Source: Escherichia coli (GTDB lineage: Bacteria > Pseudomonadota > Gammaproteobacteria > Enterobacterales > Enterobacteriaceae). Taken from it: a DNA stretch of 64,000 nt. The translations under genes were made by a program, and so were the position numbers. Of this stretch, positions 1 through 7,467 are shown piece after piece. Each line of letters opens with the position of its first letter. The stretch's first letter is position 1. The DNA lies in assembly GCF_024502345.1 (NCBI RefSeq), contig NZ_JALDNN010000001.1; one strand, 5' to 3'. The notes below the pieces were generated by a model, which was not told the origin of the DNA, searched no databases, and saw only the letters and a list, made by a program, of their open reading frames with translations.

Positions 1-281
1 GGCGTGTCTGCGGTTTTTCAACTATTCAGATACATCACTCCCATCACATTCATTCCTCCGCATCATAGGCATATAGGCTATATCACCTTGATATTTTTCT
101 TCTTCAGATAAAAACTGTTATCTATGTATACTTTTAAACCCAATCCGTGTAGAGTCTCTGCATAAGATAGTTTGCAGTTGCCACTTCAGCTTGCGCCATA
201 AACCGCCTGATTTTTGCCGCCACCTGGGTGATGCTGCCAACTTACTGATTTAGTGTATGATGGTGTTTTTGAGGTGCTCCA

Positions 282-557
282 GTGGCTTCTGTTTCTATCA
301 GCTGTCCCTCCTGTTCAGCTACTGACGGGGTGGTGCGTAACGGCAAAAGCACCGCCGGACATCAGCGCTATCTCTGCTCTCACTGCCGTAAAACATGGCA
401 ACTGCAGTTCACTTACACCGCTTCTCAACCCGGTACGCACCAGAAAATCATTGATATGGCCATGAATGGCGTTGGATGCCGGGCAACCGCCCGCATTATG
501 GGCGTTGGCCTCAACACGATTTTCCGCCATTTAAAAAACTCAGGCCGCAGTCGGTAA
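282..557 (+). CDS. insA: IS1 InsA
   Basis: 91-aa [27 protein letters not shown]..., recognised as IS1 InsA. Confidence 0.95.
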
Positions 558-979
558 CCTCGCGCATACAGCCGGGCAGTGACGTCATCGTCTGCGCGGA
601 AATGGACGAACAGTGGGGATACGTCGGGGCTAAATCGCGCCAGCGCTGGCTGTTTTACGCGTATGACAGGCTCCGGAAGACGGTTGTTGCGCACGTATTC
701 GGTGAACGCACTATGGCGACGCTGGGGCGTCTTATGAGCCTGCTGTCACCCTTTGACGTGGTGATATGGATGACGGATGGCTGGCCGCTGTATGAATCCC
801 GCCTGAAGGGAAAGCTGCACGTAATCAGCAAGCGATATACGCAGCGAATTGAGCGGCATAACCTGAATCTGAGGCAGCACCTGGCACGGCTGGGACGGAA
901 GTCGCTGTCGTTCTCAAAATCGGTGGAGCTGCATGACAAAGTCATCGGGCATTATCTGAACATAAAACACTATCAATAA
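476..979 (+). CDS. insB: IS1 InsB (expressed as InsAB' by frameshift)
   Basis: 167-aa ORF overlapping insA in the -1 frame, typical IS1 arrangement. Confidence 0.9.
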
Positions 980-994
980 GTTGGAGTCATTACC

Positions 995-1092
995 TAAGTC
1001 AGGTATAAATATAAGTGACATTGCCCAAGAATTCAAAACCTCGCGGCAAACCATTTTAAGAGCTAAAGCAAAAAATCAGACACCTGATATAT
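995..1092 (+). pseudogene. C-terminal HTH fragment of a recombinase/DNA-binding protein truncated by IS1
   Basis: Open frame running straight out of the IS1 right end: ...[31 protein letters not shown]. Resembles the C-terminal HTH of serine recombinases; no start codon of its own. Confidence 0.3.
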
Positions 1093-1191
1093 AAAAATAA
1101 TCTCGGTGTGAGATTCCTTACGTTTTCCAAGCCCCCCTTCCTAGCCTTAAATGGAAAGATACTTCTAATTATAGAATTTATATATCTTACC

Positions 1192-1359
1192 CTACGGTAG
1201 GGCTGGCCATTCAATATCCGGTGCAGTTGATGTATCAACACGGTTCAGCAACACCCGATACTTTTTCCAGGCTTCCAGCAACAAGGTTTCTTCCTCCGTT
1301 GCGATCTCCAGATCCACAGCATCCTGAAGCGGCGCTATATGCTCACTGGCTACCTGCAT
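1192..1359 (-). CDS. Hypothetical small acidic protein (55 aa), divergent from the CI-like gene
   Basis: [58 protein letters not shown]; below the 60-aa cutoff of the ORF track; sits in the cro position but shows no obvious HTH. Confidence 0.3.
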
Positions 1360-1439
1360 CAGGCTGTTTTTTGTTTCTTCCGCCTACCTGTAATACTGAT
1401 TGCGAGTTGAATGGTTTGATTTGTCATTATCAATTCCTA

Positions 1440-1537
1440 TTGGTATTGCAATGAATGAATAATAGCAATGCGTATTAATCCAAGCAATAGCAAAACGTGT
1501 TTTGACCATCAATACGCAAGCGTATAAATTAAAACTT
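1440..1537. promoter_or_regulatory. Operator/promoter region upstream of the CI-like gene
   Basis: AATAGCAAT at 1461-1469 and AATAGCAA at 1486-1493; palindromes ATTGCAAT (1445-1452) and ATACGC-AA-GCGTAT (1512-1525); TTGACC (1502-1507) followed by an AT-rich -10-like stretch ending ~9 nt before the ATG at 1538, suggesting a leaderless or near-leaderless transcript. Confidence 0.45.
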
Positions 1538-2230
1538 ATGAAAAAAGAAACTCTTGCTGATCGCTTAAACCTAGCGATGGAACAATCTGGAATGTCTCAA
1601 GGCGCTCTTGCAAAGGCGTCTGGCGTAGCTCAACCCACAATCTGGAGACTGACAAGCGGCAACGCTCGCGGCTCAACAAAAATTGTTGAAATAGCTAATG
1701 CATTGGGTGTTCGAACAGAATGGCTCTCATCAGGCATAGGCCCGATGAGAAATGACGGTCAACAATCAGGGAAGCCTGCTGTCAGCCATTCAAAATACTT
1801 CAAGATTGACGTTCTTGATATAGAAGTGAGTGCCGGGCCGGGAGTCATCAACCGTGAGTTTGTAGAAGTTCTACGCTCGGTTGAGTACTCGTTTGACGAT
1901 GCTCGTCACATGTTCGATGGTAGGAAGGCAGAAAATATCCGCATCATTAACGTACGCGGTGACAGCATGTCAGGAACGATCGAACCAGGTGATCTGCTGT
2001 TCGTTGATATCACGGTTAAATCTTTCGACGGTGATGGTATCTATGCGTTTCTGTATGACGACACCGCCCATGTAAAGCGCCTGCAAATGATGAAGGATAA
2101 GCTACTGGTTATCTCTGATAACAAGAGCTACTCACCGTGGGACCCGATCGAGAAAGACGAGATGAACCGGGTATTCATATTCGGTAAGGTTATTGGGAGC
2201 ATGCCGCAGACGTACAGAAAACACGGATAA
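1538..2230 (+). CDS. CI/LexA-type phage repressor (N-terminal XRE HTH, C-terminal S24 autopeptidase)
   Basis: 230 aa from MKKETLADRLNLAMEQSGMSQGALAKASGVAQPTIWRL (HTH) to ...NVRGDSMSGTIEPGDLLFVDI...AHVKRL (S24 Ser in GDSM and Lys in VKRL). The ORF track offers an upstream ATG at 1502, but that lies inside the promoter-like region. Confidence 0.85.
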   Translation: MKKETLADRLNLAMEQSGMSQGALAKASGVAQPTIWRLTSGNARGSTKIVEIANALGVRTEWLSSGIGPMRNDGQQSGKPAVSHSKYFKIDVLDIEVSAGPGVINREFVEVLRSVEYSFDDARHMFDGRKAENIRIINVRGDSMSGTIEPGDLLFVDITVKSFDGDGIYAFLYDDTAHVKRLQMMKDKLLVISDNKSYSPWDPIEKDEMNRVFIFGKVIGSMPQTYRKHG

Positions 2231-2312
2231 TCAGCCGCGTGTTGATGAGGCTTTTGGGTAATACGCTGAAGAAAATACCTTATAAAAAATAACATTACGG
2301 GAAAGGCAAAAA

Positions 2313-2576
2313 ATGAGTAATAAAACACTTGTTAAAAAATCAAATAACTGTGTCGATGCATACGCCGACGCGTTTGGCTACTCTTCGTTTGGTGACGGCT
2401 CTCAGCGCCTAGGTTCAATTTCTTTTTTTCATAATGTAACTGAATGGCCTGTTGATGAAAGTGACGATGTTGAGAACATAAAGTACAACATTGCAACCAT
2501 TAGAATGCCCGAAGAATTGATGCTTAAATTGGCTGACTTCATTCGCGACCAGCATGACAAAGCTAAAACAAACTAA
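2313..2576 (+). CDS. Hypothetical protein (87 aa), prophage cargo gene
   Basis: ORF with GGAAAGG ribosome-binding site 7 nt upstream; AT-rich compared with neighbours; no family recognised. Confidence 0.5.
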   Translation: MSNKTLVKKSNNCVDAYADAFGYSSFGDGSQRLGSISFFHNVTEWPVDESDDVENIKYNIATIRMPEELMLKLADFIRDQHDKAKTN

Positions 2577-2588
2577 TCGTAATTAATT

Positions 2589-3032
2589 ATGAAACACGAT
2601 TATTACGAAGCTCCAAACCTAAATGATAAAATTGCAAAGGCGGCAAAATCATTTTGTTTGCACTCCAGTGCGTCTTCCCAGCTAGCAGGTATATCTGGAA
2701 AAAGATGGGACATGCTACAATCAAGTGGTAGCAGTGGGTCTGGGAGTGATAACATGCCTGAAAAAGTTGCAAAACTGGAGTCCGATGTTGCTCATATCAA
2801 ACGAGACGTTGATGAACTTAAAACAGACGTTAAAGCTATCGACAAAAATATGATAACTATTCTTGCACGTCTGGACTCTATAAAAGAATCCTTAACAAAC
2901 AAGCCATCAAGTGATGCTGTCGATAGAAAGATTTCAGACGCAAAGCTTGCGGTATTGCTTGGTGTTCCAGCAATCATCGCTGCAGGAACAGGACTTTATA
3001 AGCTATCAATGTACTTTTTCTTTAGTGCTTAA
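2589..3032 (+). CDS. XhlA-like coiled-coil protein with C-terminal transmembrane helix
   Basis: C-terminal 92 aa MPEKVAKLESDVAHIKRDVDELKTDVKAIDKNMITILARLDSIKESL...AKLAVLLGVPAIIAAGTGLYKL: heptad-like coiled coil plus one hydrophobic helix, resembling phage hemolysin XhlA. The ATG at 2589 has no ribosome-binding site; the ATG at 2754 has GGGAG 7 nt upstream and may be the true start. Confidence 0.5.
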   Translation: MKHDYYEAPNLNDKIAKAAKSFCLHSSASSQLAGISGKRWDMLQSSGSSGSGSDNMPEKVAKLESDVAHIKRDVDELKTDVKAIDKNMITILARLDSIKESLTNKPSSDAVDRKISDAKLAVLLGVPAIIAAGTGLYKLSMYFFFSA

Positions 3033-3106
3033 GAAAATGCTCGCACCCTTGCATTAGGTAAAGCGATTTTTCATTCCCCATTACCCTCGCTCTTAACCAA
3101 TCATCT

Positions 3107-3136
3107 AAACCCGGCCACCGTGCCGGGTTTTCTTTT
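3107..3136 (+). terminator. Rho-independent terminator after the CI/cargo operon
   Basis: aaaCCCGGC-caccgt-GCCGGGttttctttt: GC stem, 6-nt loop and T-run, just downstream of the 3032 stop. Confidence 0.6.
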
Positions 3137-3261
3137 GCCCTCCCCTCATCACACACCGTTCAAAAAACCACCACGACCTCACTTCAGTTATCGCTATGCG
3201 ATGCAAGTCACAAAATTAATTCTTTTTGCTATCAAACATTTAATATCAAAACACATCAACT

Positions 3262-3308
3262 AATAGCAATAAGTATTGATATCACCAATAGCAATAGCTA
3301 TTATCACC
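3262..3308 (+). promoter_or_regulatory. Second operator set with pL-like promoter
   Basis: AATAGCAAT at 3262-3270; palindrome AATAGC-AATA-GCTATT at 3287-3302; TATCACC direct repeats at 3280-3286 and 3302-3308; TTGATA (3276-3281), 17-nt spacer, TATTAT (3299-3304) on the + strand. Confidence 0.4.
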
Positions 3309-3497
3309 ATATCGCAACAACACAACGATACGGCAACCACCTGATTCACCGTTGCGATGACCGCTTAGATCCGCAGCTTGAATTTCAGCAGGCTTCGGGG
3401 AGTGCGAGGGATGAAACGGACGCGTGAACGTCGGTGTGACCAGCTGAAATCAACTCAACATTTCATACCTTAGTCGCTTCAACGAGGCGGCTTAGTT

Positions 3498-3788
3498 ATG
3501 ACAACCGGCGGCCATCCACCGCCTGAATACGCGCAGAAGTCTTTATATGTTCAGCAGCCCAGCTTACGGGCAGGAGTTTTTATGGTTCATCAACATTACG
3601 GAACGCAGACCGTTAATCGCGGTGCGGTCATGCCAGGAATGCTGGTCAAACGCAAAGATGGTACCTGGACTGCATCAGCTAATTTACGCGGACGACTTTA
3701 TCTGCATCGCGGCATTGAGCGCACTTATACCCGTGACTTGCTCGTGGAAGTTTTTCTCGACGGACGCGGCAACGGTCTGAATCACTAA
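3498..3788 (+). CDS. Hypothetical prophage protein (96 aa)
   Basis: ORF with GAGG about 10 nt upstream; no family recognised; an internal start MVHQHYG at 3582 is also possible. Confidence 0.35.
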   Translation: MTTGGHPPPEYAQKSLYVQQPSLRAGVFMVHQHYGTQTVNRGAVMPGMLVKRKDGTWTASANLRGRLYLHRGIERTYTRDLLVEVFLDGRGNGLNH

Positions 3789-3863
3789 TCCCCTTTCCTG
3801 TTTTCCGAATCAGCCTGGCATTCCGCGGGCGATTTTTTCACAGCCATTTTCAGGAGTTCAGCC

Positions 3864-4148
3864 ATGAACGCTTATTACATTCAGGATCGTCTTGAGGCTC
3901 AGAGCTGGGCGCGTCACTACCAGCAGATCGCCCGTGAAGAGAAAGAGGCAGAACTGGCAGACGACATGGAAAAAGGCCTGCCCCAGCACCTGTTTGAATC
4001 GCTATGCATCGATCATTTGCAACGCCACGGGGCCAGCAAAAAAGCCATTAGGCGCGATCACTTTCATCTACTCCGTTACAAAGCGAGGCTGGGTATTTCC
4101 CGGCCTTTCTGTTATCAGAAATCCACTGAAAGCACAGCGGCTGGCTGA
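3864..4148 (+). CDS. Hypothetical prophage protein (94 aa)
   Basis: [31 protein letters not shown]... with AGGAG 9 nt upstream. Confidence 0.5.
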
Positions 4149-4175
4149 GAAGATAAATAATAAACGGGAGGCGGT

Positions 4176-4367
4176 ATGCACAAAGCATCTCCTGTTGAGT
4201 TAAGAACGAGTATTGAGATGGCACATAGCCTTGCTCAAATTGGAGTCAGGTTTGTGCCAATACCAGTAGAAACAGACGAAGAATTTCATACGTTAGCCAC
4301 ATCCCTTTCACAAAAGCTGGAAATGATGGTGGCGAAAGCAGAAGCAGATGAGAGAGACCAGGTATGA
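4176..4367 (+). CDS. Hypothetical prophage protein (63 aa)
   Basis: ORF MHKASPVELRTSIEMAHSLAQIGVRFVPIPVETDEEF... with GGGAGG 5 nt upstream. Confidence 0.5.
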   Translation: MHKASPVELRTSIEMAHSLAQIGVRFVPIPVETDEEFHTLATSLSQKLEMMVAKAEADERDQV

Positions 4368-4377
4368 CAACCACTGA

Positions 4378-4656
4378 ATGCATTTTTCTGGCAGCGGGCT
4401 TCATATTCTGTGTGCTTATGCTTTCCGTTTCCATGACCTCAGACACACCTGGGCAAGCTGGCTGATTCAGTCAGGCGTCCCATTATCAGTGCTTCAGGAA
4501 ATGGGCGGATGGGAGTCCATAGAAATGGTTCGTAGGTATGCTCACCTTGCGCCTAATCATTTGACAGAGCATGCGAGGAAAATAGACGACATTTTTGGTG
4601 ATAATGTCCCAAATATGTCCCACTCTGGAATTATGGAGGATATAAAGAAGGCGTAA
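4378..4656 (+). pseudogene. Tyrosine integrase, C-terminal fragment only
   Basis: ...[46 protein letters not shown]... carries the integrase catalytic box (HxLRHT, trailing Y) but only ~80 aa remain; ends 16 bp from the 3' end of argU, the expected attachment site. Confidence 0.8.
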
Positions 4657-4671
4657 CTGATTGAATTGTAA

Positions 4672-4748
4672 TGGCGCGCCCTGCAGGATTCGAACCTGCG
4701 GCCCACGACTTAGAAGGTCGTTGCTCTATCCAACTGAGCTAAGGGCGC
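4672..4748 (-). tRNA. argU: tRNA-Arg (anticodon UCU)
   Basis: Reverse complement reads GCGCCCTTAGCTCAGTTGGATAGAGCAACGACCTTCTAAGTCGTGGGCCGCAGGTTCGAATCCTGCAGGGCGCGCCA (77 nt, anticodon TCT, CCA end). Confidence 0.95.
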
Positions 4749-4990
4749 GTTGATACCGCAATGCGGTGTAATCGCGTGAATTATACGGTCAACCCTTGCT
4801 GAGTCAATGGCTTTTGATCTGGTTGCTGAACAAGTGAACGACCGCGTCTGATTTTCTGATTTATTTCGCTATAGCGGCAAACAAACACACACCGCTGCGC
4901 GTCTGAATCAAGAAAACCCGTATTTTCATGTATCAAAGTACAATTTACCGCCCTAACGGAAAATTGTCCGCTCCTATGAGACTGGTAACT

Positions 4991-5623
4991 ATGAAACCAA
5001 CGTCGGTGATCATTATGGATACTCATCCTATCATCAGAATGTCTATTGAAGTTCTGTTGCAAAAAAACAGTGAATTGCAGATTGTCCTGAAAACGGATGA
5101 TTACCGCATAACCATCGATTATCTCCGAACCCGTCCTGTTGATTTAATCATTATGGATATAGACTTGCCCGGAACAGACGGTTTTACCTTCCTGAAAAGG
5201 ATCAAACAAATCCAGAGCACAGTGAAAGTGTTATTTTTATCATCGAAATCAGAATGCTTTTATGCTGGCAGAGCGATACAAGCTGGTGCTAACGGTTTTG
5301 TCAGTAAATGCAATGATCAGAATAATATTTTTCATGCCGTTCAGATGATCCTCTCCGGATACACGTTTTTTCCCAGCGAAACGCTTAACTATATAAAAAG
5401 CAATAAATGTAGTACGAATAGTTCAACGGTCACTGTGCTATCTAATCGTGAAGTGACCATATTACGTTATCTGGTTAGCGGATTATCTAATAAAGAAATT
5501 GCCGATAAGTTATTACTTAGCAATAAAACAGTTAGTGCGCATAAATCTAATATTTATGGCAAGCTAGGTTTGCATTCAATTGTAGAGCTTATCGACTACG
5601 CCAAATTATACGAATTAATATAA
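4991..5623 (+). CDS. fimZ: Fimbrial response regulator FimZ (LuxR-type)
   Basis: 210 aa from MKPTSVIIMDTHPIIRMSIEVLL...; receiver domain plus C-terminal LuxR HTH. The ORF track's upstream start at 4928 is probably an overcall. Confidence 0.9.
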   Translation: MKPTSVIIMDTHPIIRMSIEVLLQKNSELQIVLKTDDYRITIDYLRTRPVDLIIMDIDLPGTDGFTFLKRIKQIQSTVKVLFLSSKSECFYAGRAIQAGANGFVSKCNDQNNIFHAVQMILSGYTFFPSETLNYIKSNKCSTNSSTVTVLSNREVTILRYLVSGLSNKEIADKLLLSNKTVSAHKSNIYGKLGLHSIVELIDYAKLYELI

Positions 5624-5720
5624 TATTAATTATAATTGATCATAAATATCGCATCCGCTTTCGCCGGTGATGCTGCCAACTTACTGATTTAGTGTATGAT
5701 GGTGTTTTTGAGGTGCTCCA

Positions 5721-5996
5721 GTGGCTTCTGTTTCTATCAGCTGTCCCTCCTGTTCAGCTACTGACGGGGTGGTGCGTAACGGCAAAAGCACCGCCGGACA
5801 TCAGCGCTATCTCTGCTCTCACTGCCGTAAAACATGGCAACTGCAGTTCACTTACACCGCTTCTCAACCCGGTACGCACCAGAAAATCATTGATATGGCC
5901 ATGAATGGCGTTGGATGCCGGGCAACCGCCCGCATTATGGGCGTTGGCCTCAACACGATTTTCCGCCATTTAAAAAACTCAGGCCGCAGTCGGTAA
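5721..5996 (+). CDS. insA: IS1 InsA
   Basis: Protein identical to copy 1 InsA. Confidence 0.95.
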
Positions 5997-6418
5997 CCTC
6001 GCGCATACAGCCGGGCAGTGACGTCATCGTCTGCGCGGAAATGGACGAACAGTGGGGATACGTCGGGGCTAAATCGCGCCAGCGCTGGCTGTTTTACGCG
6101 TATGACAGGCTCCGGAAGACGGTTGTTGCGCACGTATTCGGTGAACGCACTATGGCGACGCTGGGGCGTCTTATGAGCCTGCTGTCACCCTTTGACGTGG
6201 TGATATGGATGACGGATGGCTGGCCGCTGTATGAATCCCGCCTGAAGGGAAAGCTGCACGTAATCAGCAAGCGATATACGCAGCGAATTGAGCGGCATAA
6301 CCTGAATCTGAGGCAGCACCTGGCACGGCTGGGACGGAAGTCGCTGTCGTTCTCAAAATCGGTGGAGCTGCATGACAAAGTCATCGGGCATTATCTGAAC
6401 ATAAAACACTATCAATAA
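5915..6418 (+). CDS. insB: IS1 InsB
   Basis: Protein identical to copy 1 InsB. Confidence 0.9.
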
Positions 6419-6600
6419 GTTGGAGTCATTACCCGAAAAATGAAGCTTTCAATCTCAGCGACCTCAGCGACGGTGCGCCTCACCTTCGCAAGAGGTCGCT
6501 TCACGCGATAAATCTGAAACGAAACCTGACAGCGTGCCCCGCTTCTGACAAAATAGGCGCATCCCCTTCGACCTACGTAACAGATGGAATCCTCTCTCTG

Positions 6601-7467
6601 ATGGCAGCAAAGATTATTGACGGTAAAACGATTGCGCAGCAGGTGCGCTCTGAAGTTGCTCAAAAAGTTCAGGCGCGTATTGCAGCCGGACTGCGGGCAC
6701 CAGGACTGGCCGTTGTGCTGGTGGGTAGTAACCCTGCATCGCAAATTTATGTCGCAAGCAAACGCAAGGCTTGTGAAGAAGTCGGGTTCGTCTCCCGCTC
6801 TTATGACCTCCCGGAAACCACCAGCGAAGCGGAGCTGTTGGAGCTTATCGATGCGCTGAATGCCGACAACACCATCGATGGCATTCTGGTTCAACTGCCG
6901 TTACCGGCGGGTATTGATAACGTCAAAGTGCTGGAACGTATTCATCCGGACAAAGACGTGGACGGTTTCCATCCTTATAACGTCGGTCGTCTGTGCCAGC
7001 GCGCGCCGCGTCTGCGTCCCTGCACCCCGCGCGGTATCGTCACGCTGCTTGAGCGTTACAACATTGATACCTTCGGCCTCAACGCCGTGGTGATTGGCGC
7101 ATCGAATATCGTCGGTCGTCCAATGAGCATGGAACTGTTGCTCGCAGGTTGCACCACTACCGTGACTCACCGTTTCACTAAAAATCTGCGTCACCACGTA
7201 GAAAATGCCGATCTGTTGATCGTTGCCGTCGGCAAGCCGGGCTTTATTCCTGGTGACTGGATCAAAGAAGGCGCAATTGTGATTGATGTCGGCATCAACC
7301 GTCTGGAAAATGGCAAAGTTGTGGGCGACGTCGTGTTTGAAGACGCGGCTAAACGCGCCTCATACATTACGCCTGTTCCGGGCGGCGTTGGCCCGATGAC
7401 GGTTGCCACGCTGATTGAAAACACGCTTCAGGCGTGCGTTGAATATCATGATCCACAGGGTGAGTAA
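6601..7467 (+). CDS. folD: Methylenetetrahydrofolate dehydrogenase/cyclohydrolase
   Basis: 288 aa, [23 protein letters not shown]... Confidence 0.95.

Follow-up and report, generated by a model that had tools for sequence, protein, structure and literature searches.

DLP12 of Escherichia coli K-12 is a defective (cryptic) prophage integrated at argU, and the decay of such prophages, through deletions next to IS1 or at microhomologies, is known biology. Intact lambdoid relatives of DLP12 share a common gene order, in which cI, cro and O/P come first and stf, tfa, a recombinase gene, ydfK, ynfT and a methyltransferase gene lie at the other end. In E. coli C8 (NZ_CP010125.1, 1,037,429-1,083,000), one intact lambdoid prophage of this kind is found between intD and appY and reads intD ... 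exo-bet-gam-kil ... cI, then cro-ydaT-O-P ... Q-lysis-head-tail-J-lom-stf-tfa, then recombinase-ydfK-ynfT-methyltransferase. The recombinases at the right end of such prophages resemble PinR and PinQ, the serine recombinases of Rac/Qin-like prophages (PF00239 and PF02796), and their neighbours encode tail fibre assembly proteins of the Caudo_TAP family, to which lambda Tfa, Mu gpU and K-12 TfaQ/TfaR belong. In Tfa, the N-terminal domain binds the fibre and the C-terminal helical domain has been proposed to mediate trimerisation (PMC9608196).

The window analysed here, a stretch of 64,000 nucleotides of E. coli DNA, carries a remnant of such a prophage at the tRNA gene argU, adjacent to the site that intD occupies in intact relatives. 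The neighbourhood is a shared one: intD and appY flank the C8 prophage, and the window has tRNA-Arg(tct) (4672-4748, minus strand) and then fimZ. In comparison with the intact relatives, nearly all of the prophage is gone from the window. It keeps cI and two further ORFs, kil, a stump of gam, an ORF like the C-terminal end of an integrase and the stumps of tfa and of the recombinase gene, and these pieces share 99-100% DNA identity with the intact prophages. The stretch 995-1427 is very probably non-functional debris from the decay of a lambdoid prophage whose centre has collapsed, and two separate lesions meet in it (Table 1).

Table 1. Positions of the features in and around the collapsed centre of the prophage remnant (numbering of the window).
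Feature	Position	Strand	Description
Left flank of IS1 copy 1	1-226		Prophage right-end DNA; in intact relatives it follows closely on the class I SAM-methyltransferase gene
IS1 copy 1	227-994	+	Complete, 768 bp, recognized by sequence and ORFs; insA 282-557, insB frame 476-979
3' stump of PinR/PinQ-like serine recombinase gene	995-1094	+	Last 32 codons 996-1091, stop 1092-1094
Hairpin CCCTA-CGG-TAGGG (CCCTACGGTAGGG)	1190-1202		Spans the tfa stop codon
3' stump of tail fibre assembly gene tfa	1192-1385	-	Last 63 codons and stop
Chimeric 22-codon ORF	1359-1427	-	cro start read out of frame into tfa
Deletion junction	1384-1385		tfa-derived up to 1385, cro-derived from 1384; CT common to both
5' stump of true cro	1386-1427	-	ATG at 1427, 14 codons (MTNQTIQLAISITG) of a 75-aa YdaS/Cro-type HTH protein
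Divergent control region cro'-cI	1428-1537		Intact; 100% identical to the intact prophage L001
CI-type repressor gene	1538-2230	+	Intact, 230 aa, HTH_3 and Peptidase_S24 (Pfam)
IS1 copy 2	5666-6433		100% identical to copy 1

The element on the left of this stretch has the length, the terminal inverted repeats and the insA and insB frames of IS1, and the first base outside it on the right is 995. No 9-bp target duplication surrounds it (218-226, CGCCACCTG; 995-1003, TAAGTCAGG). The left flank is 100% identical to positions 5001-5226 of the prophage region of E. coli GE3 (L003), where it is followed by ynfT, ydfK, pinR and tfa. Both flanks of the element are collinear in GE3, but they lie 1,334 bp apart there, and the 1,334 bp of parental sequence missing from the window hold ynfT, ydfK and recombinase codons 1-164. 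Given the missing duplication and the parental distance between the flanks, this is not a simple IS1 insertion; we infer an IS1-associated adjacent deletion or a recombination between two IS1 copies. IS1-mediated adjacent deletions likewise leave one flank collinear with the parent and the other displaced (here by 1,334 bp) with no 9-bp duplication, and the case in the window shows nothing unusual in this respect. The first of the two lesions, if it arose as an IS1-associated adjacent deletion, would thus have removed ynfT, ydfK and the first 164 recombinase codons.

The frame that leaves the right end of IS1 matches the end of a 196-aa recombinase encoded by an intact parental prophage (L002 42027-42617), and its 32 residues are identical to the last 32 of the 196-aa protein of C8. 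The parent protein starts MSRIYAYCRVST and has a Resolvase domain at residues 4-144 followed by HTH_7 (Pfam). The 32-residue tail matches HTH_7 at profile positions 20-44/45 (28.8 bits, cut-off 23.8; E 1.4e-6), so the first 19 profile positions are lost and the distal part of the DNA-binding domain is what remains. Unlike PinR/PinQ recombinases, the stump does not encode the Resolvase catalytic domain with its nucleophilic serine (the Ser of the N-terminal YCRVST motif), and since that domain has been deleted, recombinase activity is impossible for the stump. A related copy in the GE3 prophage, called pinR by PGAP, shows 92.6% DNA identity. More broadly, window positions 995-1388 share 99.5-99.7% DNA identity with the convergent 3' ends of two genes that many E. 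coli prophages carry, annotated as 'recombinase family protein' and 'tail fiber assembly protein'. The preliminary description had proposed that IS1 took away the body of a DNA-binding or recombinase gene, and the parental gene, with Resolvase and HTH_7 and 32 codons left in the window, bears this out. It had also described the HTH-like frame as having no start codon, which is correct for ATG; a TTG in the right terminal repeat of IS1, on the other hand, opens a 37-aa ORF (981-1094) that continues through the HTH remnant of the recombinase. In an E. coli draft assembly, a gene caller predicted a 40-aa product at the corresponding position (L016 35-157).

Convergent with the recombinase stump is the end of a tail fibre assembly gene. 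The 63-aa fragment (1195-1383) matches the C-terminal half of the Caudo_TAP profile (PF02413, profile positions 68-130/131, E 6e-30, 104.5 bits, cut-off 22.1) and PHROG tail fibre assembly families (E about 1e-28), and it aligns to residues 113-174 of Mu gpU (PDB 5YVQ, 5yvq_B). The parental Tfa has 191 aa and a full Caudo_TAP domain, of which the window encodes residues 129-191, the conserved C-terminal helical portion. At the DNA level the stump region is 99.5% identical to L002 41733-42126; in the matching E. coli prophages the gene is sometimes named tfaQ. In contrast to Caudo_TAP proteins, the fragment is missing the first two thirds of the chain, to which PMC9608196 assigns fibre binding, as well as a start codon of its own, the sequence upstream being cro. 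There is also no tail fibre gene stf in the window, while stf is present in the parents L002, L003 and L012. The fragment cannot work as a chaperone.

The true cro gene is found on the far side of the tfa stump. In the parents it occupies L001 3817-4044 and L002 6273-6500 and encodes the 75-aa product, which matches YdaS_toxin in Pfam and, weakly, P22_Cro. As in lambda, the cro start in the window lies beside OR and is divergent from cI; in contrast to lambda-type Cro, no more than 14 codons are kept. These lie upstream of the stretch that matches the HTH profiles (parent residues 15-52), and the match between the window and L001 begins only 44 nt inside cro. Read on out of frame into tfa, the cro start gives a chimeric ORF whose TGA (1361-1359) overlaps the ATG of the next ORF (1359-1357) as TGATG. 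The immunity side has been spared: positions 1384-2300 are 100% identical to the 5' part of cro, the operators and cI of the prophage of E. coli 2014C-3307, and 96-98% identical to phages with genes annotated cI and Cro; Escherichia phages PhiR30_1 and Lambda_4C10 are examples with cI at this level of identity. Among the PHROG families, the repressor matches the transcriptional repressors of PHROG 4 (E 5e-69). While cro is destroyed, PR and the operators are intact; together with the intact cI, the operators may still confer immunity.

Within the control region, operator-like repeated and palindromic motifs are present at 1461-1479 (AATAGCAATGCGTATTAAT) and 1511-1529 (AATACGCAAGCGTATAAAT), the latter with the palindrome ATACGC-AA-GCGTAT. 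A promoter-like sequence, TTGACC-17-TAAATT, at 1502-1530 overlaps the second motif and ends 7 nt before the cI ATG. A transcript that starts there would have almost no leader before cI, as is the case for lambda PRM.

In megablast comparisons of 995-2300 with phage and E. coli collections, the matches split sharply at about 1384. Aligned jointly with the tfa and cro regions of L002 and L012, the window switches cleanly from one to the other at the dinucleotide CT; the flanks are otherwise unrelated, and cro codon 14 is joined out of frame to the last 63 tfa codons. In the C8 prophage the two pieces keep this order and orientation and are separated by 35,421 bp, a segment that holds cro, O, P, Q, the lysis, head and tail genes, stf and tfa. 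Given the clean switch at CT and the unrelated flanks, the second lesion was probably a deletion by illegitimate recombination at this 2-bp microhomology. Measured against an intact prophage, it would have removed about 35.4 kb with the replication, lysis, head, tail and tail-fibre genes; measured against an already deleted precursor of the type found in gut metagenomes, it would amount to 2.8 kb. What the sequences show directly is the origin of each piece, against which no evidence was found, along with the break-points, the reading frames and the parental order; the two deletion mechanisms, the sequence of events and the loss of function are inferred.

Copies of the arrangement were sought by look-up of the exact 55-aa product of the tfa stump and of a neighbouring chimeric 94-aa Gam product. 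The cro::tfa junction was found in five independent assemblies: the E. coli draft GCA_001484475.1 (L016), which is 99.98% identical over window positions 938-5665, and four contigs from human-gut or other metagenomes (L004, L013, L015 and L017). All five combine cI with an IS1 end, the stump of the recombinase gene and the fusion of the tfa stump to cro', and the copies are nearly identical to one another. Among 5,426 complete E. coli genomes the junction was found in none, which places the lineage of the window outside that set. The exact 30-nt junction pattern likewise had no match in the GTDB species representatives, which include very few E. coli/Shigella genomes. Seven further contigs (L005-L011) were rejected as copies of the junction; they yield the exact 55-aa product because they end inside tfa.

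It is very doubtful that the junction was made by a Pin-type invertase or by IS1 instead of by illegitimate recombination. A recombinase gene and IS1 do lie within 400 bp of it, and serine recombinases exchange strands at a 2-bp core, just as the junction shares 2 bp; yet IS1 sequence is absent at the junction, the flanks of the break-points are otherwise unrelated, and neither parental break-point has an invertase crossover core. Searching 46 kb of the parent with AAACCNNGGTTT, which we take to be the consensus of this core, and allowing one mismatch, we found 2 matches against 1.5 expected, both away from the break-points. The probability that the junction is an assembly artefact we consider negligible. 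The 3' end of tfa is a repeated sequence, which an E. coli genome has at a median of 2 places, and assemblies often break there, as the contig ends L005-L011 illustrate; but five independent assemblies, produced from different samples and with different assemblers, show the junction in identical form between unique flanking sequences. Given this recurrence, the junction is real and inherited in a lineage.

The small ORF created by these events deserves separate consideration, since the preliminary description had placed it at the position of cro. In agreement with that description, the minus-strand ORF at 1192-1359 encodes 55 aa, proved to be acidic (pI 4.25; 11 D+E against 4 K+R), has no HTH match in Pfam and is divergent from the CI-type repressor gene. 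Its position next to the operator did not hold: the cro ATG and 14 cro codons intervene, and in the parents the ORF is the in-frame C-terminal end of the 191-aa Tfa, about 35 kb from cI. Judged from its sequence, the 55-aa ORF is the C-terminal piece of tfa, has no relationship to Cro and is not a gene at the cro position, and gene callers label the product "tail fiber assembly protein, partial". It resembles cro in placement because the deletion set the end of tfa beside the intact OR/PR/cI module. The possibility had also been raised that these bases are non-coding or read in a different frame in the intact parent; they are coding there and in the same frames, but as ends or interiors of tfa and of the recombinase gene and not as stand-alone genes. 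It is extremely unlikely that the ORF is a genuine early gene, for example a cro substitute or an antirepressor, read leftward from the operator region. Divergence from cI and a place downstream of an intact PR region fit such a gene, but its sole Pfam match is Caudo_TAP, its start is an internal Met of Tfa and its end the natural tfa stop, and the true cro ATG lies 68 nt upstream of that start and is read in a different frame. By eye, the 12 bases that precede the start also contain no convincing ribosome-binding site, and the parental arrangement already refutes the idea. An exaptation of the fragment also seems very unlikely. Cleavage of CI during the SOS response would let PR drive the 22-codon cro' ORF together with the TGATG-coupled C-terminal oligomerisation domain of Tfa, which would spoil the tail-fibre assembly of co-resident, induced or superinfecting phages; if so, the remnant would make a dominant-negative chaperone fragment on SOS induction. 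Several features are compatible with this scheme: PR/OR and cI are intact and do not differ from their counterparts in an intact prophage, a TGATG stop-start overlap is present, the conserved C-terminal helical domain with its proposed role in trimerisation (PMC9608196) has been retained, and the same junction recurs in several samples. Against it, cro and tfa are joined out of frame, seemingly by accident, erosion also affects neighbouring genes of the same remnant, the junction is absent from the 5,426 complete E. coli genomes, and its copies carry no sequence divergence by which selection could be gauged. With the overlap and an intact PR, low-level SOS-dependent translation of the Tfa C-terminal domain is possible. 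For the stumps in 995-1427, the reading of debris implies that they most likely have no function.

Two metagenome contigs from the gut, L012 (1-3400) and L014 (1-3330), carry this remnant in a form that lacks the cro::tfa deletion. The IS1::recombinase boundary of the window and its gam fusion are present in both, and they contain 2,814 bp more, comprising full tfa, an stf stump, full-length O, ydaT and full cro. In these contigs the 185-codon stf stump is joined to the first ~108 nt of P, a deletion of ~31.7 kb with respect to C8. IS1 copy 2 is at the position of the window in L012, and L014 ends in matching IS1 left-end sequence. Their form is a possible precursor of that in the window and a plausible intermediate still circulating in human gut metagenomes. 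The junction in the window may be a nested second deletion of 2.8 kb in a gutted prophage, or else an independent deletion of 35 kb; the 35.4-kb route and the nested 2.8-kb route each need two events from a common ancestor. IS1 copy 2 is present in the window and in the undeleted L012 and L014, and not in the junction-bearing L013, L015, L016 and L017, which conflicts with a simple tree and requires recurrence, recombination or chimeric metagenome contigs.

Erosion extends to other parts of the remnant. A 94-aa chimeric ORF (3864-4148) is a gam::DUF1317 fusion with its junction at 4049/4050, where the N-terminal part of Gam is joined to sequence inside the DUF1317 gene by a 1.6-kb deletion that covers the 3' end of gam, bet and exo; the exact product is annotated as 'hypothetical protein' in E. 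coli drafts (KUG79532.1 and others). The integrase is represented by a 92-codon ORF resembling its C-terminal end (4378-4656), immediately before the tRNA gene, so excision of the remnant is probably impossible. The locus is a fully traceable case of stepwise prophage erosion, with two IS1-associated and at least three IS-independent deletions. It also calls for caution in annotation, where the small gene at 1192-1359 could easily be called "cro-like" or "hypothetical": in decaying prophages, the place of a gene with respect to the immunity region cannot be taken as evidence of its role, since deletions bring the ends of unrelated genes together.

Two ORFs follow cI where lambda has rexAB, one of 87 aa (2313-2576, phrog_4231) and one of 147 aa with a hydrophobic C-terminal segment (2589-3032, phrog_3556). 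Their counterparts in L013, L015 and L017 were called as 47 aa and 92 aa, and both ORFs appear to be decaying as well.

The preliminary description had also pointed to a hairpin with a 5-bp stem over the stop codon of the 55-aa ORF, at 1189-1201. It exists and covers the stop, with its coordinates shifted by one (Table 1). The window contains 85 perfect hairpins with a 5-bp stem and a 3-nt loop against a mean of 62 in shuffled sequences, the folding z-scores of this one are -0.58 and -0.42, and a terminator scan found no terminator-like site in 900-1700. On these grounds it was rejected as a terminator; it is a chance-level hairpin inside or next to coding sequence. Just past the recombinase stop lies a short inverted repeat, AATCTC-GGTGT-GAGATT (1099-1115), with CCTTACGTTTTCC behind it, a weak terminator candidate between the convergent recombinase and tfa genes for which the consensus scan made no call.

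In the parental prophage, the methyltransferase gene contains GAACCTTGGTTT (L002 43758-43769), which resembles an invertase crossover core and has the recombinase gene on one side and another tfa copy, a pseudogene (L002 44535-44702), on the other; the number of such matches is at chance level. IS1 copy 2 of the window stands directly after fimZ and is followed by folD (flanks 4928-5623 and 6601-7467), and the sfm fimbrial genes are gone. Fimbrial genes are still present beside fimZ in L013, L015, L016 and L017, and in L016 an IS1 end is found 1,037 bp further on.
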